Origin: Rhynchobatus australiae
Lineage: Eukaryota
Length of the DNA stretch: 64,000 nucleotides
Assembly: GCA_034780895.1 (NCBI GenBank)
Contig: JAUZTB010000001.1
Span: forward strand, 116,885,934 to 116,949,933
Direction: 5' to 3'
Shown here: positions 2,444 to 30,319 of the stretch, piece by piece
How the letters are laid out: the number at the start of each line of letters is the position of its first letter
Numbering within the stretch: the stretch's first letter is position 1
Program-made: the position numbers and the translations under genes
Notes under the pieces: model-generated
Seen by the model: the letters and a program-made list of their open reading frames with translations, nothing else
Databases searched by the model: none
What the model was told of the DNA's origin: nothing

Positions 2444-2686
<243 letters not shown>

Positions 2687-3310: not shown

Positions 3311-3319
3311 GGGAATGGA

Positions 3320-8583: not shown

Positions 8584-8646
8584 ATCGTGAGCGTATAGCT
8601 CTAGGCACAGAGGAAGGACTTTATGCAGTAGAGCTAACACGAGATA
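8584..8646 (+). CDS. CDC42BPB: CDC42BPB exon, CNH domain (DRERIALGTEEGLYAVELTRD)
   Basis: ctcctag acceptor, A|gtaagc donor, phase 1/1. Confidence 0.95.
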
Positions 8647-8901
8647 GTAAGCTACTAAATAATCAATTTACTTCTTTAAGGTTTTCAGCAGTAATTGTAA
8701 TTGAACACTATTACTGATTTTAAAAATGTATATTCTAACAGGTTAAAATAAATTATAGAAATTAAGTTTTCTAAACAATTTACTAAATGTAGAAAGGTTT
8801 AAAGAGTCAGTAGATGATCAAAATGTAAAGTAATTGCATTATTATAAATTCTGAATGCAGGAAGTCTTGCATTGTACAAAATAAATCTTCTCTGATTGCA
8901 G

Positions 8902-9498: not shown

Positions 9499-10459
9499 GT
9501 ATGTATACTTTTGCTCATTATGTTGGTTGCTATTGTTTTTTTTTGCATTTTCTGTTTGGTCAGATTCTTTCTGGCTTTAGTATAAATTCGTCACCTATAG
9601 GGAGCCTTTGAATGCATTATCTCTGTAATATCCCAAGCCATTTCATATATAAGAAATCTAATAATTCTCCATTCAATTGAATGGAGAAATATTAAGGAAT
9701 TTGGGGTTCAAGAAGATTTTGTGTATTCTATACTTAGTATTTTTTAAACAATCCTCTTGTTAATAGATCAGGTAGTGAATGGATCAACGCACAAATAAAC
9801 TTGTTTGACCTGGTCCTCGCCAATCTCTCTGTTCCAGATGCATTTTATTTTATTCATTTTTCAGGGTGTGGACATTAAATTCAAAGCCAGCNNNNNNNNN
9901 NNNNNNNNNNNNNNNNNNNNNNNNNNNNNNNNNNNNNNNNNNNNNNNNNNNNNNNNNNNNNNNNNNNNNNNNNNNNNNNNNNNNNNNNNNNNNNNNNNNN
10001 NNNNNNNNNNNNNNNNNNNNNNNNNNNNNNNNNNNNNNNNNNNNNNNNNNNNNNNNNNNNNNNNNNNNNNNNNNNNNNNNNNNNNNNNNNNNNNNNNNNN
10101 NNNNNNNNNNNNNNNNNNNNNNNNNNNNNNNNNNNNNNNNNNNNNNNNNNNNNNNNNNNNNNNNNNNNNNNNNNNNNNNNNNNNNNNNNNNNNNNNNNNN
10201 NNNNNNNNNNNNNNNNNNNNNNNNNNNNNNNNNNNNNNNNNNNNNNNNNNNNNNNNNNNNNNNNNNNNNNNNNNNNNNNNNNNNNNNNNNNNNNNNNNNN
10301 NNNNNNNNNNNNNNNNNNNNNNNNNNNNNNNNNNNNNNNNNNNNNNNNNNNNNNNNNNNNNNNNNNNNNNNNNNNNNNNNNNNNNNNNNNNNNNNNNNNN
10401 NNNNNNNNNNNNNNNNNNNNNNNNNNNNNNNNNNNNNNNNNNNNNNNNNNNNNNNNNNN

Positions 10460-11800
10460 GGTGTGGACATTAAATTCAAAGCCAGCACTTAATGCCTATC
10501 CCTAATTGCCCTAGAAATGGTGGGAATGAGCCATCTTGTTGATCAATTGCACTCCTCATGAAGGTGCTTTCAGAGTGCTGTTGGGAGTTCTGGCAAGTAG
10601 ACCTATCAATGATGAAGAAATGGAAACGTATTTCTAGTCAGGAAGATGCGCAACTTGTGCAGATGGTGCCTGTTGCTGTTGTCCATGTTGTTAGTAAAGG
10701 CTGCAGAACTGGAAGGTGGTGGTGCTGGAGTAGTCTAGGATAGTAACTGCAGAGCATTTTGTAGCTAGCATACACTATAGCCACTGTGTGTTGGTGGTAG
10801 GGAAAGATATGATTAGGGTGATAGTTGAGGTGCTGGTCAAGTAGGTTTCTCACCACAGCTGGATGGTGTGATGTTTCCTAAGAGTTGTTGGCACTGCACT
10901 TACCCAGGCAAGTGAAGGCTATTCCATCACACTTCTATCTTGTGCATTTTAGGATGGTGGAAAATCTTTGAGATGTCAGGAAGTGGCTCATTTGTCATAG
11001 ACAACTTGATCTTTGGTGGGTGCAGTTAGGTTTCTGGTCAGTGGTGACCCCCACACCCCCAGGACAGCAATGATAATAGAATGTCATGTCAAGGATGTTT
11101 CAGGAGATGGAGACAAGCATTGCCTCACACTTTAGTAGCTCAACTGCTAATTGTCACCTCCTAGCCTGTACATAAGTGTCATCAAGGTCTTGTTGCGCGC
11201 AGGTATACGCTGGTTCAATTGTTGAGAAACTGCAAATTTAGTTGAATATTGTGCAGTTGTCAGCAAACATTCCCACTTCTGACCTTAAGGCAGAAGGAAG
11301 GTCATTGATGAACCAACCATGGTTGGTCTTTGGACAGTATGTTGAGGAGCTCTGGTAGTAATGTCCTGGGTCTGGGATAATTGACCTCCAACAACCACAA
11401 CTATCTTCCTCTGTGACTTATGACTCGAAACATTGGTATGCTTTACAAATCAACACTAGTTTTACCTGGGCTCATTGATGGCACACTCAATCAAGTGTTG
11501 CATTCATGACAAGGGCCAGCACTCTCACCTCACCTCAGAATTCAGTGCTTTGCTCCATGCTTGGACTGAGGCTTCAATGAATTCTTGAGCTGAGAGGTCC
11601 TGGCAAAACTCAAACTGAGCATCAGTGAGCAGGCTATGGGTAAGTACGTGCTGCTTAATGATACAGTGGATAATACCTTCCATCACTCTGCCACCTGAGT
11701 AATTTTCCATATGGTTGAGTAGATGCCAGTGTTGTAGCAGCAGGCGCAGCTGCTTCTATAGCTCAAATCTTCAGTTTTACATCTGGGACATTGTTTGGTT
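10460..11800 (-). mobile_element. CR1/L2-clade LINE fragment
   Basis: ORF 11525-11710 HSLLTDAQFEFCQDLSAQEFIEASVQAWSKALNSEVR is a degenerate RT QFGFR region. Confidence 0.8.
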
Positions 11801-13055
11801 CCCTAGCATTTTGTTCTACCCATTATTCCATGACCGTGTTGGTCAAAGTTACCATCACATAATTCTGCTGGATTAAAGTTCTGAATTCACACCCAGCTCA
11901 TCATCCATCCTATTGTGCTAATTAGGATAGACATGGATTGAACTGGCAGCTTAAAACTGGATATCCATGAGGCACCGATAAATATCAGCAGCAGCAGAAA
12001 TGTATTCTATCACAATCTGTAACCATAAATGAGATGCCACGATGCTGGACAATGTGCATGCTAAACAGGAAAATCTATCCTTGGACAATTAAGCAGCTAA
12101 TGGAATTGGGGGTCCGAGGACATTGCCATCCTCAGCTGTAAATACTCAGCAGGTCAGGTCACATCACATCTATGAGAAGAGAAACAGAGTTAACATTTTG
12201 TGTCAAAGACACTTCATTAGAACTGGGAATCCTCAACTGTATGTCCGCTTATCAAGACCTCTCAGGGTCTCTTATGTTTCATTTGTCCCCTCTCACTCTT
12301 CTAGACATCATTGGATACAAGCCTAGCCTCTTTAAACTATTCTCATAAGACAACCAGCCCTTTCTGTGTATTTCTCTGGTAAACTTCTCTGAAATGCTTC
12401 CAAAGCATTACCATCCTTCTTTAAATAAGAGGACCAAATAGAGTAGACAGTTCTCCAAATGTGATCTCACCAAGGCCTTGTAACTGAAACATAACTTGCA
12501 TCATCTAGAGTTCCTCTAGAAATAAATAAAGTTCTTTTAGCTTTCTTTATTTCGTACTGCATACTAGCTGTTTGTGAATCATGCACTAGGATACCCAAAT
12601 CTCTCTGCAGTCACTCATTTAGATAATGTGCTGCTGCTATTTATCTTGCCAAAAAAGCAAAATTATACCCCCATTTTCCCACTTATTTAACTTGCCTGTA
12701 TCCCTTTGCAGCCTCCTTGTCCTCTTCACAATTTAGTCTCAATCCAATTAATGTCAGATTCCCTACTGCATTGTTTGATTGTCAACTATGACTCTGTTGG
12801 TTGCACCATTGTTAGAAGACTGTGGGTTCAAGTATCATTCCAAGAATTCTAATGCAATACAAAGGGCATGCAATTCTATTTGGCGTGCCATCTTTCAGAT
12901 ATGATGTTGAACTGAGGCCCTATCTGCTATAATATCTTTTAAACCAATGCAAACAGTTACAGAAATCATACTTAGTGGATGTAACCTGAACCTGAAATTC
13001 TCATGCATGGGTTTAGCCAATTTTGGACAAATTTCACTGGAGATANNNNNNNNNN

Positions 13056-13152
13056 TTATGCTACTTCATATCTAACAATTTACAGTGAGTATGGTGTGGA
13101 TGTCTTCGATGTGAATACCATGGAATGGGTCCAAACAATTCCTCTTAGAAAG
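13056..13152 (+). CDS. CDC42BPB: CDC42BPB exon, CNH ([32 protein letters not shown]); acceptor hidden in the N run
   Basis: Translation matches MRCK; AAG|gtactg donor; 5' boundary lies in N 13046-13055. Confidence 0.93.
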
Positions 13153-13257
13153 GTACTGTTGGTGGTTGCAGTGTCTAAATACAAAGATCTGTTCTTACAA
13201 TGACATTACTCAGCTTCAGCTTTGCATTAATAAGATTTATTTGATTTCTGTAACTAG

Positions 13258-13342
13258 ATCCGACCAGTAAATGCTGATGGCACACTAAATCAGCTCAACT
13301 CGGAACCTCCAAGGTTAATATATTTCAAGAATAACTTTTCAG
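13258..13342 (+). CDS. CDC42BPB: CDC42BPB exon ([28 protein letters not shown])
   Basis: aactag acceptor, G|gtttgt donor, phase 0/1. Confidence 0.95.
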
Positions 13343-15049
13343 GTTTGTTTCATTAATTTCATATCGCTGTGTTGGAATGAATGCCTTTCCATGTGTATTA
13401 GAGAATTGGATCTTTTGTTTCAAAACAGTATTTCAGAATGTTGAATACTTGCCATTTTGTCTTTAATTTAAGTAACTTTTGTATTGTGCCCTACCCATTG
13501 AGATCATCATGTGACTTCACTTTCAAGAGGCAGTAGCACCTGGAAAATAAAAGATATTTGANNNNNNNNNNNNNNNNNNNNNNNNNNNNNNNNNNNNNNN
13601 NNNNNNNNNNNNNNNNNNNNNNNNNNNNNNNNNNNNNNNNNNNNNNNNNNNNNNNNAGTCTAAATTGAGAAAAATCTACAATTGAAGGAATGCTTAACAT
13701 TGTGTCTAATACAGTGTGTAGTTTTCAGTAATTCTTTTTAAAAGGTGAACAATCTCTTAAAGAAAACAAGGCGAATACATTCTCAATGCTCTATTTAACT
13801 TTGTACTACAAAAATGTTTCTGACTTGATTTTGATTTCTGCTGGTGATGGTGGAATACTAGTCATTATTTCTGGAATAGGAAGTAAAAACTAATAGAGCT
13901 ATCACTCTGACAACTAATCCCTGATGAGGGAAAAAATACACGAGAATACCTGAAATAATCTGGAAAACTATCCGTGTCATCTCTGCTACAGCTACCTGGC
14001 TGTTAAAGCAGCCAAGCTTTTGGAGTGCTTCTGAATGTCCCTGAGGTTTGAAAGCATTTTAATTATAAAAAAAAATTAGAATATTAAAAATTATGATAGC
14101 AGTTGTACTTCCTGCACGTGCTGACGTTGAGAGTTGCTGGCTAATCAAGACTGATATCACCCAATAAGTGTACTGCATGGTAGGGAAAATAAATAAGAAC
14201 AGAAGAGTACAGTATTAGGAAGCTAAGAAGCATCAGGAGTACACTGAGCACTGACCAGCAGCATCCAAAACCACACTCAGTAAATTCACTATGGCGTATT
14301 TTTGTCATTTGCCAGAGAGCTCTGATCTGGATCCTGCTTACTGGAGAAGGGTAAAATGTATGGAGATATTCCAGAAATGCCATTTACCAGAAATTACAAA
14401 TTATAAAATGCCAGATAAACAAGTTTGTATAGTATTTTGAAATTTACCATAAGAGGTCACCTAAACACTTAAAAATATTTTGAATAATTATTAATTATAC
14501 AGGACTTTTTAAAAAAAAGTCTCACAGCTGTAAAATTTCCAAATGAGCTGCTGCACCAGATCTAATCTGCTGAAGAATCTCTGCAGCTGTTGCTGTGAGA
14601 TTTACCAGCTACAACCTGTTGGCAAGTTTGGGACTGCTACATTTTTGTTCATGCACTATGGTTCTAAACCTGCCTGCACTTTAAAAGGTCCATGTCTCAA
14701 TAGTTCACATGGAACTGCCATTTTACAGGTAGCTTTGGTCCATTATTTGGTTTCCTGATGCTTATTCATTCAATTGAAAAGCTTTCTTGTACCAAAGGTT
14801 GATGGTTTCTTTTTCTCAAAGACTGTTACACTCAGCTCCTCACTTTTGGAAATATAACTTTTGTCGGATTAGCACATAGTCCCACAAGCATTCTAATATG
14901 GTGAGACTGTTTTGAATAATTCACTTAAACCCTTCAGTATCTTGGATCATTAAACTGAAGTTATGGAGGCCCTATGTCTTAATTGTCTGATAATTGATTG
15001 GCTTTGTGATGGGNNNNNNNNNNNNNNNNNNNNNNNNNNNNNNNNNNNN

Positions 15050-15146
15050 ACACATCAGACAACAGCAGAAAGCAGATGCTCAGGACACGCAGCAAAAAGA
15101 GATTTGCTTTCAGGATACCAGAAGAGGAACGGTTACAACAGAGGCG
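15050..15146 (+). CDS. CDC42BPB: CDC42BPB exon (..[33 protein letters not shown]); 5' part in the N gap
   Basis: Translation matches MRCK-beta; CG|gtagga donor, phase 2. Confidence 0.93.
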
Positions 15147-15250
15147 GTAGGATGTTGTTCTCGAATAGCTTAACAATCTATGTAATTTAAGTTATTGAGC
15201 CATTTTGTTACCAATTTCAGAATCTGATTTGCTTGTATTATGCAAAACAG

Positions 15251-15368
15251 TGAGATGCTGAGAGATCCTGAGATGCGGTCAAAGCTGATATCCAATCCAA
15301 CAAACTTCAACCACGTGGCTCACATGGGACCAGGAGATGGCATGCAAGTACTTATGGATCTTCCACTG
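15251..15368 (+). CDS. CDC42BPB: CDC42BPB CRIB/PBD exon ([39 protein letters not shown])
   Basis: CRIB motif ISxPxxFxHxxHxG; aacag acceptor, CTG|gtaaat donor. Confidence 0.98.
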
Positions 15369-16536
15369 GTAAATACAAAAAATTGTGAACAGCAAAATTT
15401 TTCTCCAACTGTTTATTTACCATTTGGTTAGACTGTAAACTTAGCATGAGGAATTATTGGCAAGTATTACATCTAGATCTCTTAAATTTAGCTAAGCATT
15501 TTCATTATCTGAAAGTTGCATTCTGCGGTGTTAAAATATGTCCCACAAACAAAATTAAAAAGGTATCTGAAAAAGTGTTCAAGTTCTACCATAAGTATTG
15601 CAAATTTTAAACTCTTTATTCTACGCTATTCTTGAGTTCATCAATATTTTTACTATTTCTTTCTTTATAGCCTGGCGTGCCTTCATTGCTTTTTATGAGA
15701 GAGTATCTCTCTAATTTAAGCCTAATGTAACTTGCTAAGTCCTGAAGGTCACAGTAGCAGCAGCTCGGTTGTTTGGTACTGTTGTTTCTGAGTCAGAAGG
15801 CTGCAGTTTCAAGTCCCATTTGAGATATCTGAGCTCAAAAATGTAGGCTTAACATTTCAGGACAGTACTGAGAGCTGTTCGAGAGGTAGAAAAATGTCAG
15901 TTATGAATTTGTATAAAACACAAGAATTATGCTAACAGATCTAGTGAAGATTCTGATATAGTTTAAATTCAATATTTTTAAAAGTTATTTTGTAGTATTG
16001 TAGCAGCATTTCTGGTGTTTAATATAGAAACAAATCTTAGAATTTCAAAAGTTATACAATGAAGCAAACTCTCATCATTGCTTTCAAATGTTAATCACTC
16101 CAAAATAAGTACAATGAAAATTGGTTATTTATTTATATTGGTTAAATATTTAGTGCACTGTATTTATTGATATTCTGATTTTTAATTACTAAAATTTAAA
16201 CCCATGTTTTAATTGTAGGAATTACAGAATATCTGCTTTTTGTAAAGTTTTGCTTAAATAGTCTGTTTCCTGTCGTTGACTTAGCACAGAATGAGTTTCC
16301 TTCCCAATCATCCTCAACGTCATGTCCTCGTATTTCTTCCAACCAACTTTGAGCACATCTGTCCCATGACTCCACTCTGCTCTCTTCCTCTTCCTGAGCC
16401 CTGGAATGCTATTCCATCTTGCAGCTGGCTGTTCCCCCAAATCAACATTATCATAAAGCACAGTATTTAACAAGGTGTTGAGCACTTCTCAATAAAGGAA
16501 ATTAAATTTATTTTAATCTTTTACTTGTTGCTGCAG

Positions 16537-16645
16537 AGTGTGTCACCGGTATCACAGGATGAGCAGATAAAAGAAAAGCGCGTTTCCCATTCCAATCTTT
16601 CAAGGCAGCAGCGTAGCAAACAGCACATTACACGTACAGCTTCAG
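16537..16645 (+). CDS. CDC42BPB: CDC42BPB exon (SVSPVSQDEQIKEKRVSHSNLSRQQRSKQHITRTAS)
   Basis: ctgcag acceptor, G|gtaatg donor, phase 0/1; resembles the MRCK-beta post-CRIB segment. Confidence 0.88.
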
Positions 16646-17419
16646 GTAATGACATTTCATTGATCCTGCATATTAAGCACCTTGGCTTGTTACTGAGTGC
16701 TGATAACCTCAGGATTGAGAAACAAAGACATTTTTTTAAAAATTCTGGATCACCTCAAGTGCAGAAATGTTTGCTACTAATAAGGACAGCTGGAGATGGA
16801 AATCTTATTTTGCCAATATCATTTAATATAACACTGATTATTTCTAGTGGTAAATTGAAGTAGAATAACTTTTCCTTGTTTAAAAATGTCTGTTTCCCAG
16901 CTCCATCTCCTGGGCATGTATTTGTGTGGGGAAGACATTTTCATGAAAATTATTATTCATTAAAATACAGGAGGAGGAAAAAAAACAGAAGTGTCACTTT
17001 CTTCCTGAACCATAGTTTTAGGCAAAATAATTAGACAAGAACCAATATAGGAGAACCTCTTATTTGCCAGGAACGATACTCAGTATTCATAAATCTCTGT
17101 TCCACAGATGCAAGAGACCTATTAAGTAGCAAGATTGAACTTGAAGCTAGTGGAAGTTGCAAATTTTCCAGAACATTCCTTTCTAGCACCATAGATGCAG
17201 GGGAGCTCATCTGAATTTAGATCTATAATGTTTTTAAAATTAAAACTGTAAATGCTTGAAAAGCTCAACAGGCCAGGCAGCATCTATGGAAAGAGAAACT
17301 CAATATTCTGGGTCTAGATCTGAGGAAGGGAAGTTTTTCCACCATTTTCTGTTTTGATTCAGATTACTAGCATCTTTTTTTTAAATTCAATTTTTGGTAG
17401 TTTATTAATTTTTCAGGCT

Positions 17420-18330
17420 GAGGACATTTTTGACAAGGCCATGTTTTATTGTCTATCTCTAATTAGCATTGAATGTGGCAGTGAGCCATCTTGAACTGCT
17501 GGAATGAAGGCACTCCCACAGGGCTGTTCGACAGGGAGTTCCAGAATTTAGAGCTAGGTCCATTGATGATGTATTTACAAGTCATGATGGCGCTTCTATG
17601 CACCTCCAATGCTTATCCTCCTCAATGGTAGAGGTCACTAGTTTACAAGGTGTGTTAGAGTAGCCTAGGTGAATAACCACAGTGCATATCATCCACTTTG
17701 TACTTGTGGTGGAAAGGGTGGTGATTTGTCCTGGATGGGGTTGAACTGCTTGAGCATTGTTCAAGCTGCACTCTTCAAGGCAAGTGGAAACCCTCTGGGG
17801 TCGCAGCCTTTGCCTGCTCTGGTAACCACATTATTTATGTGATGGGTTCAGTTGAGTTTCTGGTCAATGAACCCTCCCAGGATGTTGATGATGGGACACT
17901 CTCTGTGATGGTAAAGGTATTAAATGTCAAGAATGGGTAGATTCTTCCTTGTTGGAGTTAATGTTACTTCCCACTTATCAGCCCATGTATGCACATTGAC
18001 TAGGACTAGCTACCTGCCGGTAAGGGCTTCTCCATTTGCTGGGTACCTGCAAAAGGAACTAAACATTTGTGCAATCATCAGTGGGCCTTTTCTAACCTAG
18101 TGGAAGGAAGGTCATTGATGCAGCAACGAAAGATGACCGCTACTAGGATACTGCCCTGGCAAATGCCTGAAGTGATTTCCTGGAGCAAAGATAATTGACT
18201 TCCAATAAACTACAACCATCATATTTTGTGCAAGGTATGACTCTACTCTTTGGTGTGATTCCCACTGGCGTCACTGTTACTGATTCTCCTTGATGTCAAG
18301 GGCAGTCACTCACCCGTGCTCTGGAATGCA
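17420..18330 (-). mobile_element. CR1/L2-clade LINE fragment, same family as 10460-11800
   Basis: Shares blocks such as gaaggaaggtcattgatg, ataattgac(c/t)tccaa and agtttctggtca with the 10.5-11.8 kb copy. Confidence 0.75.
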
Positions 18331-18676
18331 GCCTCTTTCACATTGTTGATCCCTTGCTTCCTTTTAGTCAGTTACTAACAGACACCCTTGTCTTGTGCTC
18401 ACTCCCCATTGATTTTAGTTTGAGTTAACATTTTTTGAACTCTAGACAGACCAGATCATAATTTTCCTGCCAGTTCAGGATATCACTTCAGCAAAAAAAT
18501 CTGAGATTGATTCCAAAGATATGCTGGTCATCATTTATTAGGTTAGTTACTTTTGGATATTCTTCACTGCTTATTGATTACTAGTCCTGAGCTTTGTATG
18601 GTATCTATAAATAGTTGTGCTACTCATTAAATATGTCAAGATGCTTTCATTTGATGTACTGATTTCTTATACTTAG

Positions 18677-18738
18677 GTGGGGAGGCTGTTATGATGTCGC
18701 GTAATATTTCTGATCCTGACCAAGATTTTGAGAGAGAG
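18677..18738 (+). CDS. CDC42BPB: CDC42BPB penultimate exon (GGEAVMMSRNISDPDQDFERE)
   Basis: acttag acceptor, GAG|gtaagt donor; SDPDQDF motif of MRCK-beta. Confidence 0.93.
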
Positions 18739-18873
18739 GTAAGTACTTAGGTGTAAATGTTCAATCTCAGTTCACTTCCAATTATAATGAAAATATTAGT
18801 CAGTATTTAATTATGTTTTCTTGAAGATTAGTGCAAACATAAACTGATGTGCATACCTTTTACTTCTCTTCAG

Positions 18874-19002
18874 GACTCTGATTCAACAAGGCATTCAACA
18901 CCTTCAAACAGCTCAAATCCAAGTAGTCCACCAAGCCCAAACTCTCCTCACAGGAACCAAATTACACTGGATGGTTTGGACCACTCTACATGTGATGCAT
19001 GA
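18874..19002 (+). CDS. CDC42BPB: CDC42BPB last coding exon ([42 protein letters not shown])
   Basis: cttcag acceptor; matches the MRCK-beta C-terminus; TGA at 19000-19002. Confidence 0.96.
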
Positions 19003-20485
19003 TGATCAACTTCGGTAACACTTTATGATGTTTAAAGCCACAAACCAATAGGATTTTCCATTTTTATTCAATCTAGAAAAATTAAATTTTTTTGAATTGC
19101 TACAAGAAAGTGCCAAGAATGAAGAATAATTTCTTCTTTTAATTCTTGCTGATTGCACATTAAATTATGTATTCATGCTCCTTTATGAACAATTCTAGCT
19201 TATTTTGACTGTCAGCCTGATAAAATGACTAGGTATCATGCATATTCTTTGGTGATTACAGTTCTGTGCAGTGTTGATAAATTGCAACCTTTTTAACAGC
19301 CAAATAAATTTGGGATTGTGAGGCTTACATATTCTTTTACACCAAACTTTCCTTCCAAATTTCTAATAGTTGGTAAATGGTGAAATAAAGTTGTCCTTGT
19401 TTGTGCATCTTAGTTTATAAATATAAATAAAAAATGTTTTCTTCAGGGTATACATGACACCAGTAAATAATACTGTGAATACGAATTTTAGTTGCCTTTT
19501 GTATTACTGTTTTTAATCTCTGAAGTAGATGTACTTTCTTTGTGCTAGCATTGTAGTGAAAGACCACATCTGTCAATTATGCGCCCAATGCAGAAACATT
19601 AATGCTGGGAAATGCCAGACATGGACCTGCTGCATCTTAAAATATACAATTACTGTAAAAGATATTAAAAGTGTGATTGTTCTATTGCTGATTGAGGTAG
19701 CATAGATATTTCAAGCATTGGTGGTCTCTGGGATATAAGGAAGCCACATTAATTTGATCCTTTTCAAAAACAGTCATTGCATGAATATACATTCCTACAA
19801 AAATGTTGTATTGTTATGTTATTGTAAAAACAAACTTCATGGCAGTCTTGTACATTTTGATATGCACCCAGATGATATGCTCCTGAATGGAGTTAGTGTG
19901 CGTATGTCAGTGTATATATAACTCATGTTCAGTGTATGATAAACATTAATACTCAGAATTTTGTCCAAATTGCATTAAAGGCTTGTACACACAGCCAGTA
20001 TATCTGTTTTATCATCACACCTGTGTGCCTTCTGTGCCGTATTTGACAATTTACTGTTCATACAGATGCAGTATGATTTCCCTACTCAAGATCACTGTAN
20101 NNNNNNNNNNNNNNNNNNNNNNNNNNNNNNNNNNNNNNNNNNNNNNNNNNNNNNNNNNNNNNNNNNNNNNNNNNNNNNNNNNNNNNNNNNNNNNNNNNNC
20201 ACTGTAAAGAGATTGCATGTTTTAGTCAACCAGATCCCCGTCTGAGTGGATGGTAATTGTGACGTGCCACATTAAGCAACTAATCAAACTACTTATCTCT
20301 CATTTACTTAAAAGGGCTCACTGTGGAGCCTAACACTACTGGTGAAACAGTTTGATTTTTTTTGTTAATTTGTGAAAGTGGGTAGTCTTAAAATCAGCTA
20401 ACCACTCTTTGTAATTATGGAATTGTGCTTTGATAAAGTACTGAAAATTGAACCGTCAATAAAGCATAAAAGGAAGGTACCAAAC
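19003..20485 (+). other. Probable CDC42BPB 3' UTR with candidate poly(A) signals
   Basis: AT-rich, no recognisable repeats after the stop; AATAAA at 19384, 19426 and 20458; TE relics resume after ~20550. Confidence 0.55.
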
Positions 20486-20679
20486 TGCTTACTGGCCTGT
20501 GAACAAATAACTGTTTGGGATTGGGGGGGGGGGGGGGGGGTTGTTGGTGTGANNNNNNNNNNGGTGTGAAGGGAGCAGGGAAGATGTGACTTGCAGAGGG
20601 ATCATGTTAGAAATTGAGGGTGAAGGTGAATATGAAGGCTGTAAACTATCATATTATCTCCTCTCCCTGTGTTGGATTT

Positions 20680-20940
20680 TGCAGGGACTGCTCTTCCGTC
20701 CCCACCCATCACAACCCAAGGAGCTGCAATTGTCCTTTCACCTCTTCCCTTCTCACCATCCAGGTGCCCAAACAATCATTTCCAGTTAAGCAATTCACTT
20801 ACCTACTCCCACTGCATTTGCTGTTCACAATGTACCCTCCTCTGTACTGAAGAAATCAAATGCAGATTAGATGATCACTTCACAGACCCCCCCACTGGTC
20901 AGGCTGCAGGGCTGATCCTGAATTTGCTGCCATTTTAATG
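20680..20940 (+). mobile_element. Penelope-like GIY-YIG endonuclease relic
   Basis: PKQSF.VKQFT and CICCSQCTLLCTEEIKCRLDDHF resemble the Penelope YCI.C..CGLLYIGET.R.L..RF motif; frameshifted. Confidence 0.7.
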
Positions 20941-21994
20941 CTAGTGTCCTTATTTTCTCCTCATAATACTCGTGCTCCTTATCAACTGCTCTGCTTAACA
21001 TACTTCCATGTGTTTGTTTCTCCTCCCAGTTCTGCTTTAAACTGTAAACCCTTCACCTCAGGTTTGAGGAAGGGTTCCAGACCCAAAACATTAACAGATC
21101 GCACAGGTGGGGTTGAGTTCTAGCATTTGTTATGGAAAGAATGCCTGATATTTAAATTCAGTTATTGCTGCCCCTGCACCTTGTCATTGCAGGGTGTGCA
21201 ATATCCCATAATAGATACTGTATTGTCAGCTTATACCAGAAAGAAGCCTGTTGGTCTCACAAGGAAGATGTGGCTGAGCTGTGTTCACTCCTGGATTCAT
21301 GAAGAGGTACAAGCTGTTTAATGCCCACATCCAGTTAGCAAAGATCATCACAATGACAAGTAAAACACATCTAGAAGTATGTGGAATTAAGTGCCACCTA
21401 TCTATTCAAGGACATCACTCTTCTCACCAACTTGAGGTACACCCTATCCTTCAGTCTGCACCCTCTCACATTCATCCCACAGTCAGCATTGACATTCCAC
21501 TGCAACTTTCTGCACCAGCATATCCATTTGCCAGAGTAACCATTAACAAGTGTTCTCCAATGCATGGAATTACTGTCATTTGCATCGCTTTCCTTCACAA
21601 GCAAGCACAAACTGTCAGGAAAGTGCAAAGAACCAAATATCACCTGCAGGGAGGGCAAGTCCAATGATGATACCAGGGCCAAGCACCACCACCAGAGACA
21701 GCAAGATGGTCAGAATGTGGATTGACATACCCTACAGGAATCAGAATGAACAAATGCGATCAGACATACTTTATCCAATTGCTTTGAAAGTGAAATGATT
21801 GATTGGCCCATCAAGTTCTCCTTACAGTAAAGCAAAATAGAAAACCAAGCTAGTGAACAACTTGAATGTTGCTGCCTAACCATATCATCTCTCACTGTGT
21901 GGGGAAGCATTGCCCTGCCTTAAAATATTGCACAAGTAAAAAGATTGTGAGATAGCACAGTTACTGCATTCAACTTTAAATATACACAGAAGTA

Positions 21995-22694
21995 TCATAG
22001 AACATTACTGTACAGACCCTTCAGCCCATGATGCTGTGCCGACATTTTATCCTGTTCCAAGATCTATCTAACCTTTCCCTCCCACATGGCCAAATGAAAG
22101 CTAGAGGGCTATCTAAGAGCCTCTTAAATGTCCCTAATGTATCTGCCCAAACAACCTCTGCTGGCAGTGTGTTGCATGCACCCACCTCTATCTGTGCAAA
22201 AAACTTACCTCTGACATCACCCCCTCTCTTGCCCCCCCCCCAATACCTTCTTCCAATCACCTTAAAATTATGCCCCCTTGTGTTAGCCATTTTCACCATG
22301 GGGAAAAAGTCTCTTCACTGTCCACTCAATCTATGCCTCTTATCATCTTGTACACCTCTACTAAGTCACCTCTCTCCTCTCCAAAGAGAAAAGCCCTAGC
22401 TCGCTCAACATATCCTCATAAAACATGCTCTCCAATCCAGGCAGTATCCAGGTAAATCTCCTCTGCACCCTCTCTAAAGCTTCCACATCTTTCCTATAAT
22501 GAGGTGACCAGAACTGAACACAATACTCCAAGTGTNNNNNNNNNNNNNNNNNNNNNNNNNNNNNNNNNNNNNNNNNNNNNNNNNNNNNNNNNNNNNNNNN
22601 NNNNNNNNNNNNNNNNNNNNNNNNNNNNNNNNNNNTCTTTCCTATAATGAGGTGACCAGAACTGAACACAATACTTCAAGTGTGGTCTAACCAT
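21995..22694 (-). mobile_element. CR1 LINE 3' fragment
   Basis: [33 protein letters not shown] and TRGHNFKV motifs. Confidence 0.93.
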
Positions 22695-22799
22695 TTAAAT
22701 TACTTTATATTTGCACTTCAGTTGACAACTACTGTTGGTTTTGAACATTTTTGTATTGCCATCATTAGAAATTACAGTGGATGCCAGAAATAAAACCTA

Positions 22800-23068
22800 T
22801 TAAGAACTGCACCAGACTATGCTATTAAAGTCCAAAATAAGGTGCACTTCAGTGACTTGCAAAAGTTTCAGATGACCTTGATGTTTATAGTATTCTACAT
22901 ATAGTGAGGCTTTTTCTTTTAAAAAACACAAGACTGCACTCTGCCCAGACATGAAATACAAGTCTGCAATTAAATGTTTCACAGGCCTGAGAGAGTAAAA
23001 GGCACATTGTCCTTCAATGTATCTGTTCATTATTTGACAGGTTTTCAGTCTGATTAGTGGATAAAAAT
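22800..23068 (-). CDS. Candidate terminal exon of the same gene (NFYPLIRLKTCQIMNRYIEGQCAF...DFNSIVWCSS*)
   Basis: ttcattttag acceptor; only the phase-1 frame stays open (88 codons); no recognisable homology. Confidence 0.25.
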
Positions 23069-23469
23069 CTAAAATGAACAGTTCAACCAGTTTTTTTTTG
23101 CTGCATATTATGGGTCCATGTGCCACCAAATTTACAACAGCCCATACAACAAGATTGAGGGGAACTTGCTTGTTGCTGCCAATCAGATATTTAAAATAGT
23201 TCTTTGAAACTCATTTAGTTACTTTATTTGTACACCACATTATTGTTAAAAGCTCATGGTTATTATGTTTCCCAATATTTAGATGGAATTCTCCAAAGTC
23301 TTGTTGCTTCTCCCCGCCACCCCACCCCCCAACAGTCCAAGAAGAAGNNNNNNNNNNNNNNNNNNNNNNNNNNNNNNNNNNNNNNNNNNNNNNNNNNNNN
23401 NNNNNNNNNNNNNNNNNNNNNNNNNNNNNNNNNNNNNNNNNNNNNNNAAAGCCCTTTCAGTAACTCATG

Positions 23470-23720
23470 CAGTGACATCTGGGCTGACACTATGGAACAG
23501 TGCTGAGAGGTTGCACCACTGGAGGTGCTGTCTGCAGGAAATGTTAAGGCGAGGCCCTGTCTGCTCTACTTTGAGGAAGAACAGGGATTCTCTTCAGTGT
23601 CCCAGCCAATATTTATCCCTTAACTAACAACACAAAGAGAATCATCATCATTTTGCTCTTTGTGGCAGATTGCTATGTACAAATTGCTTCCCCCTTTACA
23701 CACTTCAGTGCTTCAGTAAT
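23470..23720 (+). mobile_element. Deu-domain SINE (SacSINE1/AmnSINE-like), degenerate
   Basis: gcaccactggaggtgctgtct...gttaaggcgaggccctgtctgc core; related copies at ~12800, 15780, 41120 and 58480. Confidence 0.6.
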
Positions 23721-23882
23721 TCTTTGCCTATTCAATGTGCAGTCATGGCAGAGATTACCCTCCTCCCTCACCGCCTGCAGCTTCCTCTCTCCCCCCAACC
23801 TCCCAACCCATCGCCCCACTCCATTGCTTCCAACAGCAAATTCACAACTGTTTAAAGCTAATCATTTACTCCTGAGACTTAC

Positions 23883-23909
23883 TAATCTGTCCTTTGGCAT
23901 GAAAAGCAC
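23883..23909 (-). CDS. Candidate 27-nt micro-exon of the same gene (GAFHAKGQI)
   Basis: ctttcatgttttattttccag acceptor and A|gtaagt donor, phase 1/1; supplies an A-K-G cleavage-like site. Confidence 0.45.
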
Positions 23910-24104
23910 CTGGAAAATAAAACATGAAAGATATACGATTAATTATCCGATTAACACAAATATTTTAAACACAAAATGCAACAAAGCAGATTCTCAGGAG
24001 GTGGTTGGAGAATTCAAGCGACAGATATTCTTTGCATTTGTTTGAAATGTTACATTAGAGGGTAATACCAGATCCAGAGCTCAGGACACAGCATGCACAC
24101 TTAC

Positions 24105-24150
24105 ACCCACACACACCTCCCCCCCCCACACACACAAGCATGCATGCGCG

Positions 24151-24212
<62 letters not shown>

Positions 24213-24290
24213 TCCACATACACTCACACTGCATCTGAACTCACAACTGCATACACAAACACTCACACACTTTTCCCCCACACACTCTCT
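24105..24290. repeat. (CA)n microsatellite with degenerate flanks
   Basis: Pure CA run at ~24156-24207. Confidence 0.97.
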
Positions 24291-24529
24291 ACTGTGTGGC
24301 TCCTCTACCTTATGACTGTTTACCACAGCCCACCACAGACAGATGGCCCCATCCCTAGCATGATCAATGTTCACCTGATTGTGTTCCCGTACCTCAAAGC
24401 TCTGCCCTGAAACTGTGCCCTGTCCTCGCCACCTCCAGGTCTGACCTTACCAGTGGGCTTTCCTCAAACAACTCCACCCCTGACAATCTTTCCCCTACTT
24501 TGTCGATGAAAGGGCTTTGTGGACAGAGC

Positions 24530-25025
24530 CAGAGAACTGGGTTCAATCCTGATCTTGGATGCTGTCTGTGTGGAGTTTGTACGTTCTCCCTGTGACCATG
24601 TGGGTTGCCTCTGGGTGTTCTGGTTTCCTCCCACATCCCAAATATGTGCTTGTTTTTAGGTTAACTGACTACTGCAGTGAGTGCGTATGAGTGTGTGAGG
24701 GAAAGTGTAAAAGTGAGAGTGTGAGTGAGTGACATGCATGTGAGTGACTGAGAGTATGTGAGAGTGTGAGTGAGTGAGTGTGTGTGTGAGAATGAGAATG
24801 TGTGTGAGTGAGTGAGTATGTGAGTGACTGAGTGTGAGTGTGAGTGAGTGTGTTGTGTCCTGAGCACTGTATCTGTTACTACCCTATCATGAATGTGGGA
24901 GAATCATTTGGGTATGGAGACAGAATAGGTCACAAGAAAATAAATGGGGGAATGGGATTGTTCTGAGAGCTGGGATAAACTTGATGGGCTGAATGGCCTC
25001 CTTTCATATCATAAGAGAGTATGAA
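24530..25025 (+). mobile_element. V-SINE/HE1-like SINE with an internal (TG/GAGT)n low-complexity tract at 24675-24855
   Basis: gggttcaatcctg...gtgtggagtttgtacgttctccctgtgaccatgtggg...ctggtttcctcccacatccc; tail gatgggctgaatggcctcct at ~24985. Confidence 0.75.
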
Positions 25026-25171
25026 GTGTAAAAAGTATGAGGAATGTATCACACTCCCAGAGAGACCCAGCCCCTGAGCACAGGAGAAATTGTAGGCCGA
25101 GCTGTGGCAGTGGGTCCAGTCTGTCCTCAGTGACATCAGAACAAGTGAGGGAGACTCGTGTTCATACTCAC

Positions 25172-25226
25172 CCCCAGAAACAAGAACAGCCAGCAGCAGC
25201 CCCAGGCAGGAGGGAGCAGCCATCAT
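25172..25226 (-). CDS. Candidate signal-peptide exon of an unidentified gene (MMAAPSCLGLLLAVLVSG)
   Basis: ATGATGG start context, hydrophobic core, consensus G|gtgagt phase-1 donor, 55 nt. Confidence 0.45.
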
Positions 25227-28200
25227 CCAGGGCTCCGGGGACACCAGTGAGTTGTGCTAGTAAGTCCCAGCTCCCACTGCTTCTCCAACACAACAGCGTT
25301 ACCAGGTGTAACAACACAAAACAAAGCTGTGCTAGCTAACGCCAGCCGTCACAACACCTTACCCTGCACTCATCAATCAGCGTCCAACTTCACTCTAACC
25401 CTCTGCCATGCCTCTCTCCCATTTCACCTCAAACAATTGTCTAAGCCTCCTTCCACTGGAAGAACCAAGCGTGTCTCCACTACACAACAGCACAGAAAGC
25501 ACAACAAACCACAAGGCTGTCCATTCCACACCGACAGGCTAAAGTTTGTACACGCTGCAGGATGCAATAAATCAAAAACAAACCAGGAACCAGAAGGAAC
25601 CCTCCTGCTTTCAGGTTGCCATGTTACCTTATGACACAATAGGAGGCCATTTGGTCTACTAAGTCCAGGCTGGCTCATAGAATGTCCCTGTCAGTCCATT
25701 TCCCCACATTTCACTGTGACATGGCAAGAAACTCCCCCTGACCTTCCCACCTGCACCAGGGGAAGCTTACAGCAGCCAATTAACCTGCAACTAAAGCTAG
25801 GATTCACCCTTAAGGAATACTTTCCACAACACTGCATGAATGATAGAAAAATAGGGGGCTATGTGGGAGGGAAGGGTTAGATAGATCTGAGAGCAGGATA
25901 AAATGTCAGCACAACATTGTGGGCCGAAGGGCCTGTACTGTAATGTTCTACATTTTATACAACCTGCAAAACTGTTGGAGAACGAAGGATTAAAGACCAA
26001 CTTGTACAAAAAAGATCAGGAGGAGCAGTTGATTTATTGTTAATATTTTACGTTCCCAATTTAAGCGCCCTGTGAAATGGGAAAGCAATTTGATTTCAGC
26101 AGCCAACACAATAGTCAGTGCCGCACTGCTGCAGTAGAGGCAAGTTAACTGCAACAAGGGCACAAGTGCTATGCAAGTTAGCACAGCTGTTCTTTAGAAG
26201 CAAATCCTTGTTTGTTTCTCCTCCCCCACTCGCCTGCACACACCAACCCCACCCCCTGCACTCCGCGTTGTTGAGGAAACGAGGCTGGGAGTTGTGCTGT
26301 CAGGGCACACAGGTGAATCAGGCACCACCAACTGAGCAATGAAGTTCCACTTCCCACAGGCAGCTGTTCAACTGTAAACCCAGGCCCCATTGTTGACCCG
26401 CCTTCCCACCCCGCCTCACGCAAACCCTTCCTTCATTTCACACTTCACGGGTCACCCAAAGGGTTGGACCAAAACAAAACTTAAAGTACCTGTTACTGTG
26501 ACAACATTTATCTGCACCCTGCCACTGATGTTTGTGTTCTCTTTACTCCTCCATTTCAGTAGCTCGTTTTTGAATTTTCCAGTTCTGATCCAAGGTTATT
26601 GACCCAAAGCACCGAGTCTCTCTCACCACAGGCGATACCTGACCTACAGAGTATTTCCAGCATTGTGTCTGTTGTGGGACACAGCACAGGCTGGGAAACT
26701 GTGGAAAGCTGCAGGCACTTGGGGAAAGTGACCCTTTGTCATCACAAACCATTTCCAGCTTTTTATCATCTTAAATTATGACTGCTCGTTTTTTTTTCCT
26801 AGTTAGTTGATTTCCAGTCCTGCATTGGATCCAAAAGCACCAACACCTGAAATATAACATTAAATCCACTTACCTCAACCTGCGATCTCCGTCATCTGGA
26901 GACTAAGGTTTTCGAAGTCAGCAGTAACAGGAAGCGGTGACATTCTGCTGGCAAACTACAGTCACATGCTCAGTAATGGCAGTAATCATCATTCCGAGCT
27001 TTCTAGCCTCTGGTTCATTGCAGGTGGTGGTAGCCGATCTGAGCTGCACAAAGCCTGCATTGGGGAGGTTACTGCTGCTCTCTACACAAAGAAAGAAGAC
27101 TGGGTGGGCATGCAGATTTGCAAGGGTGCAGATGGGATGCAATTCTGACACCTATCAGGCATCTCTCTTTTGCCCGATCATAGGCAACTGCATCTCCAGC
27201 CACCACATTAAAATTCAGCATTACAGAAATAGACTTCAGCCCATCGAGGCCATGCCAACCATCAGCCACCCATTTACACTAACTCTATATTAATTTTCAT
27301 CTCAGACTTTTCCAGCTCCTAGCTTCCTTTTTTCCTCTGCATTTAATACTGTGGAACATTTTTCATCCTTTGTGTTGACCTAATATCTTTTCTACAGTTG
27401 GACATTGCACTGTTATTCAGAGGGGTCAGGATTTCTCCTGATGGCTTGTGCAACATTCGTAGACAACTAAAAATAGCTTAACTAACAGTTATCTCATTGT
27501 TGTCCATTTGTTTGCATCTTGTGAAAGCAACATTTTCCATCATTATAATAGTGGCTGCATTTTAAATTAATTATTTGTGGAAAAAACGGATGCATTTCCA
27601 AGAAACGTAGTAAACCAGCAAAGGGGGAATGTTATTAATTTCTCTGTTGACTTTCCTGCAAAGAACTCCCTTTCTCCGAATAATTACATGAGAGTTTGCA
27701 TCCTTAGATTCCCGACTTTGGATTGATACTAACTGCATTGTACAGAGTTTGTTACCACGCCTTGGGTAATAGCAGCATGGGATAGGCACCGCAATACGAC
27801 GTTCTGGTAAATAGGTCTTCTCTATTTCAAAATGTATTTACAAAAGTAGTGCAGTAGCTCCACCTAGTAACTGTTCTGCGCTGATCCTTGCAATTCACAC
27901 AGAACAAATGACAGACTTACAGCTGATGTACAGACTGACAAAGGTCTACCTGTTCCTGGATCATCCCTTCGAGTGTAGGATCGGGAGTGTTCCACTGAAC
28001 AGAGGCATTCCGCAAAGCAGTGCACTAGATTTTATCAAAGGTTGTCTTACCCTAAGAAGTTCACTTCCCGTTCTAGATATTTTGCTTCCTAAGCTATATA
28101 GCCGAAGAAAAGGGTTTGACAGAAATAAAATATCTTAAAATTTTCTACAAGAATTACGCAGCATTAGTTAATCAGTCGCATCAACCTTACCGTGCAATTC

Positions 28201-29622
28201 ATCTTTCTATAATTCATCGATTGAACAAGGCTGCTCTGCTCCGCTTCTCCCTCTGCTGGTGAAACTAAGATTAACCTTTTCAACCAAAAACTGCAAAATA
28301 TTTGCTTAAAAGTAAATAGTTGGCATTTACCGAAAGGCTTGGGTTGTTATTTTAAGGAATCACTTAAATAAAAGGAACGCGTTTATTTCTGTGGCTACTA
28401 GCTCATGATCTTTATGGCTTATTTAAATCCCTTTATCACTGTCTGAAAGGATAAGATGGGGAGGATTTTGTTGACAACAATTAAACTTCCCAAATGCACA
28501 GAAATGCAATCTGTGTTACATTTTTCTATTTCAATCTTTTTTTCTATCAACAATGTTTGAAAACTGAATAAAAACTTTTCAGAAATTGCTAAGAAATAAT
28601 TTTATTTTACCAAATGCCTAAAAATATTAGTTTGACATAATGTTTGCCATACAGAGGGACAGAATAAACAAAGACAAGCATTACAAAGATTGGTTTGATT
28701 ACCTACGAATATCTCTGTATTTTGATTATTGCCTGAATATTGTTTAATTATGATTGATCCACTTACCCGTCTTGATGAAGCTGCCTTCATTTGATAAAAG
28801 TTTATGCAAATTAATCACATATACCTAAGGCAATGATAATTTACCTGTTCACAGTTCAACATAAAACTTGTCAGCCTGCATCAGAACCTGACAATTCTGC
28901 TATGATTAAAATTCCTCCTCCTGGCCTTCTACATGGAAAGGAGCCCTGTGTTAGGCTCACAACTTAATCACATCAGGACTGAATATGTCACAAGGGTGAC
29001 TAGCGCAAGAGTAATAACCTTACAGCTATCTCTCACTACTTATAAGTTAGTTTCAAACTAGGAGGATTCACCATAACAATTCTATGATAGTGAAGAGTAA
29101 CCCTGTTACTTTGGCTCAGTTCTCTCCCAAAGTATTACTGTCATTTTTAAAAAATCTTTTCAATTTTCCATTTCATTGTACCATCATTGTTCCCTTGATT
29201 CACACTAGGATCTTCTTAATCCAAAATTCAAAATTCAATTATATTCATTGATGAGTAAGACTGACATAAAATATTTAGTGTCAGACAAAAAGGAAACAAT
29301 ACATTGTGGATTCAATAGTTTTCTAACAGAAAACTCAGTTCATCTGTTCAGCTGCACCAACATTTACAGATTGAAGGGGAAGAACATATTTTATCATATA
29401 TTAAAACTTCACCAGAGANNNNNNNNNNNNNNCAACAATTTCCAACTGTATTCACTACCAAGTGAGAATAGCTTCAATTGAGACGGGTCTGAAAATGAAG
29501 TTAACAGTGACTGCCATTCTACCACACTTTTGGTTTACATGGATACACTAGTCTGCAAATGACTCCTAGACTGAATCATTTTTTTAGAACATTAAAAATT
29601 ACTGCATGCATGGCACAAAATT

Positions 29623-29739
29623 TTAACACTCTTGCTCTCCAAAATCATGCCCATCAAATGGTGGAGTAATAATCCTTGTCCCTGCTTGACGTGGGATGAT
29701 GTTTATTGCATGTTCTCCAGGGTAATGACTGCATGAATC
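29623..29739 (-). CDS. AMN: Probable amnionless last exon (DSCSHYPGEHAINIIPRQAGTRIITPPFDGHDFGEQEC*)
   Basis: Strong tttttttgtag acceptor; phase 0 frame open to TAA; length similar to the human tail, but sequence similarity is weak. Confidence 0.65.
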   Translation of the reverse strand, partial: DSCSHYPGEHAINIIPRQAGTRIITPPFDGHDFGEQEC

Positions 29740-30319
29740 CTACAAAAAAAAATTATCTGAATCAAAATATATAACAATCTATCAGGAGATCTGATTGAAT
29801 TTGGATGTGTGCCTGAATCACAGTGTTGTAACATGTATATCAGGTGATTAGAGTCGGCACCCCTGATCTAGTTCGCAGTTTCAGTACTGGGTTTACATTC
29901 CACTCACCTCATTTCAGTCAGATCCTCTGATAACGCTCTACGTGCACCATTCAACATTAGCAAGATGAAAAACACAGTGGAATTATCTAATTCTAATGCG
30001 GGTTAATCATACCAGTGGAAATTACACAAACACAAACTGTGCTACTGTCCTAATTTTACACTCGGAAGAGTTCAGCTGCAGCATTCCAGCATTTTGAATT
30101 CACTTCATAACATGGTGATCACAGAAATTGGACACTGGTACAGAAGCCAACCTTACTTTGGGTGCAAAAAAATATTTGCAGTACGAAAAGGCAGCTATAA
30201 TCTCCATATTAAGCATCAAACTGCATACCTTAGAATGGCCCATATTTATCTTTGGGAATAATGTACATCACAACTCCATGCATCCACTAATGAAGGTGGA
30301 GACTTCATACTGAAGCTTT

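Follow-up and report, generated by a model that had tools for sequence, protein, structure and literature searches.

The window analysed here is a 64,000-nucleotide stretch of the Rhynchobatus australiae genome, in which two genes converge on an interval of their own. AMN (amnionless) occupies positions 29624–59684 of the minus strand with 12 coding exons, which were mapped using the AMN protein of Pristis, and is identified by Pfam PF14828. The gene is complete, beginning with its own phase-1 leader exon at 59684–59648 (-), and an AMN exon of the window was 93% identical to AMN of Pristis, a batoid. On the plus strand, the 3' part of a kinase with a CNH domain (E 2.6e-50) was traced by exon frames from 642 to 19002; we take this gene to be CDC42BPB (MRCK-beta) based on synteny, together with skate gene order. 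The identities of both neighbours agree with an earlier, sequence-only reading of the window, and the 3' ends of the two genes lie ~9 kb apart. Between them, a stretch at 27501–28500 has retained CpG (o/e 0.54–0.67) and contains the one exact match in the window to what we take to be a CTCF-like consensus (it starts at 28259 on the minus strand; six other matches carry one mismatch). Judging from these sequence features, the stretch is likely a boundary or regulatory element between the convergent genes.

Searches of the interval for known families returned little. Rfam gave 0 matches, six-frame Pfam scans covering 21 and 30 frames, in which stops were translated as X, turned up no meaningful family, and the six frames of 13000–30000 lacked protease, Ig-core and adaptor motifs except for chance tyrosine pairs. 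Our literature search found nothing on AMN and CDC42BPB synteny, and among the matches listed for papers naming CDC42BPB, TRAF3 and AMN together, sharks were unmentioned.

Within this interval, the sequence-only reading had joined three minus-strand segments into a gene for a secreted protein. The segments do lie where they were placed (25226–25172, 23909–23883 and 23068–22800), and they join in frame (55 + 27 + 269 = 351 nt) to encode 116 amino acids and a stop. The four cysteines attributed to the mature part are present after the leader; counted over the whole product there are five, one of them in the leader itself. Segment 1 (25172–25226, minus strand; 55 nt) has two ATGs, 18 codons and a phase-1 GTGAGT donor (score 5.8), and its N-terminal hydrophobic core (best 10-residue hydropathy 3.13) is of the kind expected of a signal peptide. 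It was the only such phase-1 segment in the window at the thresholds first applied. Its codon score of -0.206 is non-coding-like and below that of 20 of 21 true exons, albeit weak evidence because leader exons have an odd composition. The segment also sits on the margin of the non-microsatellite DNA with the strongest plus-strand A+C skew in the window, the A+C content of that strand being 0.60–0.68 over 25101–25700. Segment 2 (23883–23909, minus strand) is a 27-nt, phase-1/1 micro-exon candidate, for which both the pyrimidine-rich AG acceptor and the GTAAGT donor were confirmed. The acceptor score (7.5) was the highest among the micro-exon candidates of the window, a list that also recovered the true 45-nt AMN exon at 54997–54953, and the donor scored 1.0. 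An alternative 40-nt form of segment 2 was rejected (donor score -1.5). Also rejected was a plus-strand gene of which segment 1 would be the antisense shadow: the 54-codon frame at +25096–25257 has no usable acceptor, found no usable match in the Atlas (recognition 1259) and had only one Pfam hit, at noise level (E 0.081).

We asked how often such a leader and micro-exon would be expected together. The best leader and the best micro-exon of the window share a strand, follow each other in the correct order at a distance of 1.26 kb and fall in intergenic DNA, a pairing that is uncommon. A leader exon at the observed thresholds occurred 0 times in each of two 3-Mb Markov simulations (of two orders) and at 0 to 0.0013 per kb when local composition was simulated; looser leader and micro-exon pairs occurred at 0.07–0.13 per 100 kb in Markov sequence, and about 0.02 leader exons per window are expected from the real donor density. 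However, the real window contains 15 ATG-led hydrophobic runs and, at relaxed donor scores, three other phase-1 leader-like segments, so the Markov simulation understates chance. These look-alikes are found at 10646–10715 (plus strand, inside a CDC42BPB intron), at 24117–24219 (minus strand, in a microsatellite) and at 21644–21728 (minus strand), the last being an ATG-to-GT segment of 28 codons with a hydropathy of 3.11 and a donor score of 2.99. A near-identical leader was absent from proteins longer than 70 amino acids when segment 1 was searched with intron read-through (78 candidates, none at E 10), a search that detects 0–2 substitutions only, and the same query had no match in the PDB.

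The proposed third exon is most likely an ordinary non-coding open reading frame. Segment 3 (22800–23068, minus strand; 269 nt) follows a weak AG with 88 open codons, and these are open in the required frame only, as had been claimed. Its codon score (-0.148) falls at the 30th percentile of 206 non-coding ORFs and below 20 of 21 true exons (means of -0.103 and +0.022, respectively), based on a codon model trained on only 3189 nt, for which segment 2 is too short to judge. The length of the frame is not above chance: 88 open codons in the needed phase behind an AG at least as good arose 98 times in 400 simulations of a 4.4-kb stretch and 21 times in 400 of a 0.9-kb stretch, increasing to 226 and 74 of 400, respectively, when any AG was allowed. 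The acceptor has no pyrimidine tract and scored -1.5 compared with 7.5 for segment 2, although this score alone does not rule out the segment because true acceptors in the window reach about -1.8 on the same crude matrix.

No protein relative of segment 3 was recovered. It matched no Pfam family, a word-indexed search of proteins of 48–154 amino acids yielded no homologue, and a full phmmer search against 1.84 billion representatives gave 0 matches at E 0.001. Simulated relatives were recovered by phmmer in 20 of 20 cases at 50% identity and 14 of 20 at 40%. The phmmer run had no control of its own; in a separate search, an AMN exon of the window retrieved 15 proteins, 14 of them from elasmobranchs. 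The protein collection includes RefSeq proteins of a very close ray relative (Pristis). Recognition of segment 3 in the Atlas was 1202 versus 2300, with no usable match, and three short peptide motifs of the candidate were absent from the literature searched. Structure prediction and a fold search, which the sequence-only reading had put forward as checks, gave no significant structural match: two single-sequence models were all-beta and of low confidence (pLDDT 42 for segment 3 and 34 for the second), Foldseek with the pLDDT-42 model returned nothing at E 0.001, and the best hit in a fold search with that model was a designed barrel (Z 5.7, rmsd 3.8, 76 aligned), with none at Z ≥8.

With non-coding codon statistics, a chance-level length, no homologue and no confident fold, segment 3 does not bear out a 116-residue secreted protein with a four-cysteine mature part, and the caution originally attached to that model, which placed more trust in segments 1 and 2 than in segment 3, proved sound. 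A lineage-specific protein of this kind, arising de novo or diverged past recognition, is highly improbable. Its phases agree, its frame is open and its weak third acceptor scores no lower than the poorest true acceptors of the window; de novo genes, moreover, often lack homologues and use codons much as non-coding DNA does. However, besides the codon use, length, searches and fold described above, a far stronger acceptor (score 8.3) lies at 22986, 82 nt downstream of the proposed one and in the wrong phase, and the RefSeq annotation of a close relative provides no such protein of 48–154 amino acids.

Our main reading, to which we give a probability of about 0.5, is that the three-segment model is a coincidence and that no intact protein-coding gene lies between AMN and CDC42BPB, where the non-coding DNA contains repeats and a CTCF-like boundary; a decayed immune-receptor gene is less likely. 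Three phase-consistent segments would in that case have been drawn from non-coding DNA. Segment 1 may read as hydrophobic because its strand is rich in G and T and includes a short CTG run, so that Leu, Val and Gly codons and GT dinucleotides arise together; segment 2 may be a good cryptic acceptor that happens to be followed by a weak donor; and segment 3 would be one of many stop-free frames in AT-rich DNA, picked because its frame fitted the required phase. The analysis established the ORF statistics of segment 3, the strand skew, the look-alike leaders and the empty protein searches; that segments 1 and 2 are likewise products of chance is our inference. If so, the locus is a caution that leader-bearing, phase-consistent models of three exons can come from non-coding DNA.

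One similarity bears on whether the segments are instead the remains of a receptor gene. The best PDB match of segment 3 was the Ig V domain of VSIG4 (2pnd, 5imm), aligned without gaps with 14 of 67 residues identical (E 0.21–0.29, 15.1–15.7 bits), and the two PDB sequences listed at E up to 10 were both VSIG4, with no other V domain among them. This weak and possibly spurious likeness extends over 22698–23018 (minus strand), with adjacent stops at codons 89–90. Cys21 of the stretch faces the first, B-strand cysteine of VSIG4, and the position of the C-strand Trp is taken by Leu (TTG); TTG and a CAT codon, which face a VSIG4 Trp and Arg, are each one base away from a Trp or Arg codon. The F-strand Y-x-C is absent from the open frame, there being no Cys at codons 91–94. 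A Y-F-W triplet occurs in a shifted frame at the expected Y-x-C position and D-G-N occurs in the main frame at codons 102–104, positions that presumably correspond to the C-terminal half of VSIG4. No phase-1/1 exon of about 330–370 nt was found at the stretch: the best donors that would close a V-sized exon score only 0.5 (365 nt) and 0.1 (377 nt) and are in phase 0, and among the donors listed phase 1 is represented by a single one, at 192 nt (-0.8). Neither the plain ORF nor three frames read through with X matched a Pfam V-set or other Ig profile (0 families), and the VSIG4 score did not improve when the stops were read through (15.2 versus 15.7 bits). Other non-coding queries from the window gave best PDB E-values of 0.071, 0.55, 0.86 and 1.3 in four of seven cases and no match in three, and a likeness at E 0.21–0.29 thus lies within noise.

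A gene relic, which the sequence-only reading had offered as an option, retains a small share of the probability. It would be the decayed unitary pseudogene of a type I surface receptor of the Ig superfamily, VSIG4- or CTX-like, an unlikely but conceivable history in which segment 1 supplied the leader and segment 2 a short spacer exon, with 23068 to ~22700 as the V exon and 21728–21644 possibly as the membrane anchor. By analogy with VSIG4, the ancestral protein may have been a myeloid adhesion or complement receptor, now dead through the loss of its conserved Trp and a pair of stops that break the frame. The ungapped alignment including the first Cys, the Trp- and Arg-facing codons one base from the expected ones, and the Y-F-W and D-G-N motifs are consistent with this, as is the fact that the best PDB match is an Ig V domain, the type of exon predicted by the leader and micro-exon layout; a leader, a phase-1 micro-exon and a V exon are a common arrangement in immune receptors. 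On the other side stand the E-values comparable to those of the control queries, the absence of a Pfam V-set match and of a score gain through the stops, the missing phase-1 donor, and fold searches that returned no Ig sandwich (from a low-confidence model). The AG that precedes the putative anchor at 21644–21728 is in phase 0 instead of phase 1; the segment has no basic tail, and its best PDB match was an irrelevant photosystem helix (E 0.071); it could be either a membrane-anchor remnant or a chance look-alike of segment 1. Moreover, shark VSIG4 sequences exist (PMC13572128), and yet phmmer found neither these nor any other protein. Also against the relic, the little skate Vsig4-2 model (LE13505) is about 720 gene numbers away from Cdc42bpb (LE12783) in the available part of PMC10115646. 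The functional analogy draws on VSIG4 expression in nurse shark myeloid clusters (PMC10529500).

A live but unannotated gene is a rather less probable alternative, in which segments 1 and 2 are the first exons and the rest lies in an assembly gap, where the sequence-only reading had suggested that the true third exon could be, or in which they encode a secreted peptide of ≤70 amino acids. The gap in question (23348–23447; 100 N, a nominal length) separates segments 2 and 3, and its ends do not overlap, whereas ends overlap at three of the six 100-N gaps in the window (by 7, 48 and 59 nt), which therefore hide no sequence. An AATAAA lies 120 nt past the gap (23228, minus strand), albeit as one of five on that strand of the interval. 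A comparison did not show the gap to begin within a SINE, as the best score (42) equalled the best of 12 shuffles. Transcription would start in the upstream stretch that has retained CpG and may include untranslated exons, 27081–26874 being one candidate, and the strong acceptor and donor at 27081/26873 (5.4 and 7.8), together with the rarity of the leader and micro-exon pair, favour a gene of this kind. However, no near-identical leader is visible in longer proteins (within 0–2 substitutions), and on inspection the other phase-1 acceptors from 23883 to 13000 and from 13000 to 1 open no protein-like frame. In the available part of the little skate data, LE12784–LE12786 lie between Cdc42bpb (LE12783) and Traf3-1 (PMC10115646), a gene order derived from gene numbers, so that one of the three may be spare after Amn; the only one identified there, LE12784, is a Myb-like DNA-binding gene and not secreted. 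CDC42BPB, AMN and TRAF3 were not mentioned in the available portion of PMC9392472. The same splice sites might also serve a lncRNA or AMN read-through transcript running antisense towards the CDC42BPB 3' end, with the leader incidental, which we regard as improbable. Good minus-strand sites without long coding frames (donors at 28190, 26873 and 25171; acceptors at 27081, 26069 and 23909) and the CpG-retaining region upstream would suit such a transcript, but the plus strand and the introns also contain sites of similar strength, and Rfam offered no match.

Coincidence remains our main reading. There is a small probability that the AMN–CDC42BPB interval of batoids contains an unannotated VSIG4-related receptor gene of the Ig superfamily (leader, micro-exon, V domain and anchor) that is absent there in mammals, dying in the sawfish and guitarfish lineage and perhaps intact in other sharks or rays, or that it survives as a short secreted peptide of segments 1 and 2 plus an exon in the gap. 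Either would indicate that cartilaginous fish have an immune-type receptor or a secreted peptide missing from present catalogues, and the locus would be a precise syntenic address at which to seek an intact copy. How sharks capture immune complexes has yet to be settled, and the rapid evolution of their receptors makes these difficult to recognise (PMC10529500, PMC13572128).

The candidate can be set beside several known systems. Like AMN, it is on the minus strand with a phase-1 leader exon first. However, tblastn hints of a partial AMN duplicate at +25090–25233 (E 0.5–3.7) fell to E 12 with a profile of 14 AMN proteins, on the plus strand of the candidate region, and the candidate is therefore not a partial AMN duplicate. 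The Harbinger-derived, Myb-like LE12784 of little skate ('Zscan29', PF13837) is numbered beside Cdc42bpb on its Traf3 side in the available part of PMC10115646; a Harbinger Myb remnant was rejected here, as neither PF13837 (Myb_DNA-bind_4) nor transposase was present in 21 and 30 read-through frames. The stretch shares with VSIG4/CRIg (2pnd, 5imm) 67 residues without gaps, with the first Cys and K-x-x-G-x-L-K in register, and differs from it in the Leu at the Trp position, the two stops, the lack of an in-frame second Cys and the lack of a closing phase-1 donor. VSIG4 has a phase-1 leader exon before the V exon, and in mammals no micro-exon is known to follow the leader of VSIG4. A leader followed by a phase-1/1 micro-exon is found in CD3G, the S1/S2 exons of FcR and FCRL genes, TYROBP, FXYD, osteocalcin/MGP and PRSS27-type proteases. 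A DAP12/DAP10-like or protease-like third exon was rejected, the motif being absent, and the ray candidate differs from these genes in having no family-defining downstream exon, motif or Pfam family; what it has in common with them is the order of its first two parts, a 55-nt phase-1 leader and then a 27-nt phase-1/1 exon.

Chance is our best reading of the three minus-strand segments proposed as a gene in the roughly 9-kb interval between the convergent 3′ ends of AMN and a CNH-domain kinase, with a probability of about one half. AMN is complete in the window on the minus strand (PF14828; 12 coding exons, 59684 to 29624), and the plus strand carries the 3′ part of the kinase (Pfam E 2.6e-50; stop near 19002). 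We take this kinase to be CDC42BPB from synteny, besides skate gene order. Searching with an AMN exon returned 15 proteins, of which 14 were elasmobranch (best Pristis pectinata, 93%), which places the DNA in a batoid near the sawfishes and shows that annotated proteins of close relatives are present in the searched collection. DNA upstream of the AMN start (59757-59710, minus) matched the N-terminal extension of the Chiloscyllium plagiosum AMN model (56% over 16 residues, stop inside, E 0.11), which suggests that this model has taken conserved 5′ untranslated or promoter DNA for coding sequence. The AMN models of Cetorhinus, Carcharodon and Hemitrygon carry unrelated N-terminal sequence where the leader is expected, probably exons of repeat origin mis-joined by annotation.

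The sequence-only reading had joined a leader (segment 1, 25226-25172), a 27-nt micro-exon (segment 2, 23909-23883) and a terminal segment (segment 3, 23068-22800) into a 116-aa secreted protein. Its coordinates and phases are correct: spliced together, the segments encode 116 residues before a stop, four Cys follow the leader, and segment 3 has a single open frame. Scored with a crude matrix, the splice sites (donor 25171, 5.8; acceptor 23909, 7.5; donor 23882, 1.0; acceptor 23068, -1.5) fell within the range of the window's true sites (donors about 0.1 to 7.8, acceptors -1.8 to 8.9), so none is excluded and two only are strong.

The codon score of segment 3, a measure of coding-likeness, was -0.148, compared with means of +0.022 for the 21 true exons (leave-one-out; 20 scored above segment 3) and -0.103 for 206 non-coding ORFs. 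Among 400 simulated 4.4-kb stretches, 98 contained an AG of equal or better score leading into 88 codons open in the required phase, as did 21 of 400 stretches of 0.9 kb. Segment 3 had no match in Pfam, the Atlas protein collection or an indexed protein search, nor by phmmer against 1.84 billion representatives, where the cut-off used recovered 20/20 simulated relatives at 50% identity, 14/20 at 40% and 3/20 at 30%. Single-sequence structure models were unreliable (pLDDT 42 and 34), and the fold searches that had been suggested, run with the first, low-confidence model (pLDDT 42), returned nothing above background. Codon use, a chance-level frame, empty searches and poor models thus leave the 116-aa product unsupported, and we regard a real secreted protein of this form as very improbable.

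Segments 1 and 2 were the one leader-like phase-1 exon and the one phase-1 micro-exon found in a first scan of both strands. At the observed thresholds, which were chosen with the candidate already in view, 3 Mb of simulated DNA (order-2 or order-5 Markov) contained 0 leaders, and under local composition the simulated frequency lay between 0 and 0.0013 per kb (at most 0.009 per kb at medium thresholds). Looser leader and micro-exon pairs occurred at 0.07-0.13 per 100 kb of Markov DNA, and medium-strength leaders of any phase at ~0.7 per 100 kb. Relaxing the donor threshold added three phase-1 look-alikes (in a CDC42BPB intron, at 21728-21644 and in a microsatellite). The intronic one, a leader-like ATG-to-GT segment (10646-10715, plus strand), exemplifies a chance signal peptide. 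The window contains 15 hydrophobic runs that start with ATG, one being the true AMN membrane helix. From the density of donors, 0.02 such runs are expected to have a donor scoring at least 5.8, and 0.14 a donor of at least 3; two other runs have donors of about 3 or more, so this expectation is too low. Segment 1 has a non-coding-like codon score and sits at the margin of the window's most strand-skewed non-microsatellite DNA. On the plus strand, 25050-25700 is strongly A+C-skewed and poor in stops, and yields frames of 54, 104 and 127 codons that overlap and are rich in Ser, Pro, Thr and Gln. The leader matched no protein longer than 70 aa, in a search whose simulated sensitivity was 29/30, 25/30, 11/30, 4/30 and 0/30 at 0, 1, 2, 3 and 4 substitutions. 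We estimate that far fewer than 1 window in 100 would carry such a pair by chance; as thousands of windows are read per genome scan, this rarity is insufficient alone.

After chance, the next reading is a relic of a VSIG4-like Ig receptor gene, which we consider unlikely and do not assign to that family. An Ig V exon is expected from the leader and micro-exon layout, and a PDB sequence search aligned segment 3 ungapped to VSIG4 (67 residues, 14 identities, E 0.21-0.29), with the first Cys of VSIG4 in register and the codons opposite its Trp and an Arg one base off Trp/Arg codons. Two stops come next (codons 89-90), and Y-F-W in a shifted frame and D-G-N further on in the main frame presumably also fit VSIG4 positions. 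However, four of seven other non-coding queries also drew PDB matches (E 0.071-1.3, including one photosystem helix), VSIG4 was the sole V domain among the matches listed for segment 3, there was no Pfam V-set match, including when stops were replaced by X, read-through of the stops did not raise the VSIG4 score, and a V-sized exon would lack a closing phase-1 donor. The phmmer search was empty although shark VSIG4 proteins exist (PMC13572128; PMC10529500), and the skate Vsig4-2 model carries a gene number distant from that of Cdc42bpb.

Somewhat less likely again is a live gene with a different third exon. The gap at 23348-23447 has flanks without end overlap, compared with overlap in three of six 100-N gaps, and an AATAAA, one of five on the minus strand of the interval, lies past it at 23228. 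The gaps at 22536-22635, 39988-40087 and 20100-20199 (100 N; flank overlaps of 48, 59 and 7 nt) probably conceal no sequence, while those at 47390-47481, 15014-15049 and 13046-13055 span the starts of true AMN and CDC42BPB coding exons, so gaps of this assembly can conceal exon sequence. Against this reading, a convincing frame was opened by none of the phase-1 acceptors between 23883 and 13000 (score at least 0) or between 13000 and 1 (score at least 3), and six-frame Pfam scans of the interval gave noise only. In the single-copy stretch 21100-21800, several long frames overlap one another on the two strands, alongside a hydrophobic segment that begins with ATG and, at 21643, a strong acceptor (7.9); family matches of this stretch were noise-level only. 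Less favoured still, and doubtful, is that the splice sites belong to a non-coding transcript. Upstream of the three segments, a CpG-retaining stretch (27501-28500), immediately beyond the probable poly(A) signal of AMN (28606), encloses the window's only exact match to a CTCF-like consensus (28259-28247, minus). A 208-nt minus-strand segment (27081-26874; acceptor 5.4, donor 7.8, the latter among the interval's two best minus-strand donors) has no coding frame across it and is a possible untranslated exon; other good minus-strand sites are donor 28190 and acceptor 26069. For this stretch and segment, a boundary element, a promoter and a non-coding transcript fit equally well.

In the little skate annotation, which is a basis for the kinase name, LE12782-LE12788 are numbered in a row as a LIM-domain model, Cdc42bpb (LE12783), an expressed Myb-like model (LE12784), two further numbers, Traf3-1 (LE12787) and a KASH-domain model (PMC10115646). 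A spare skate gene model near Amn may be among LE12785-LE12786.
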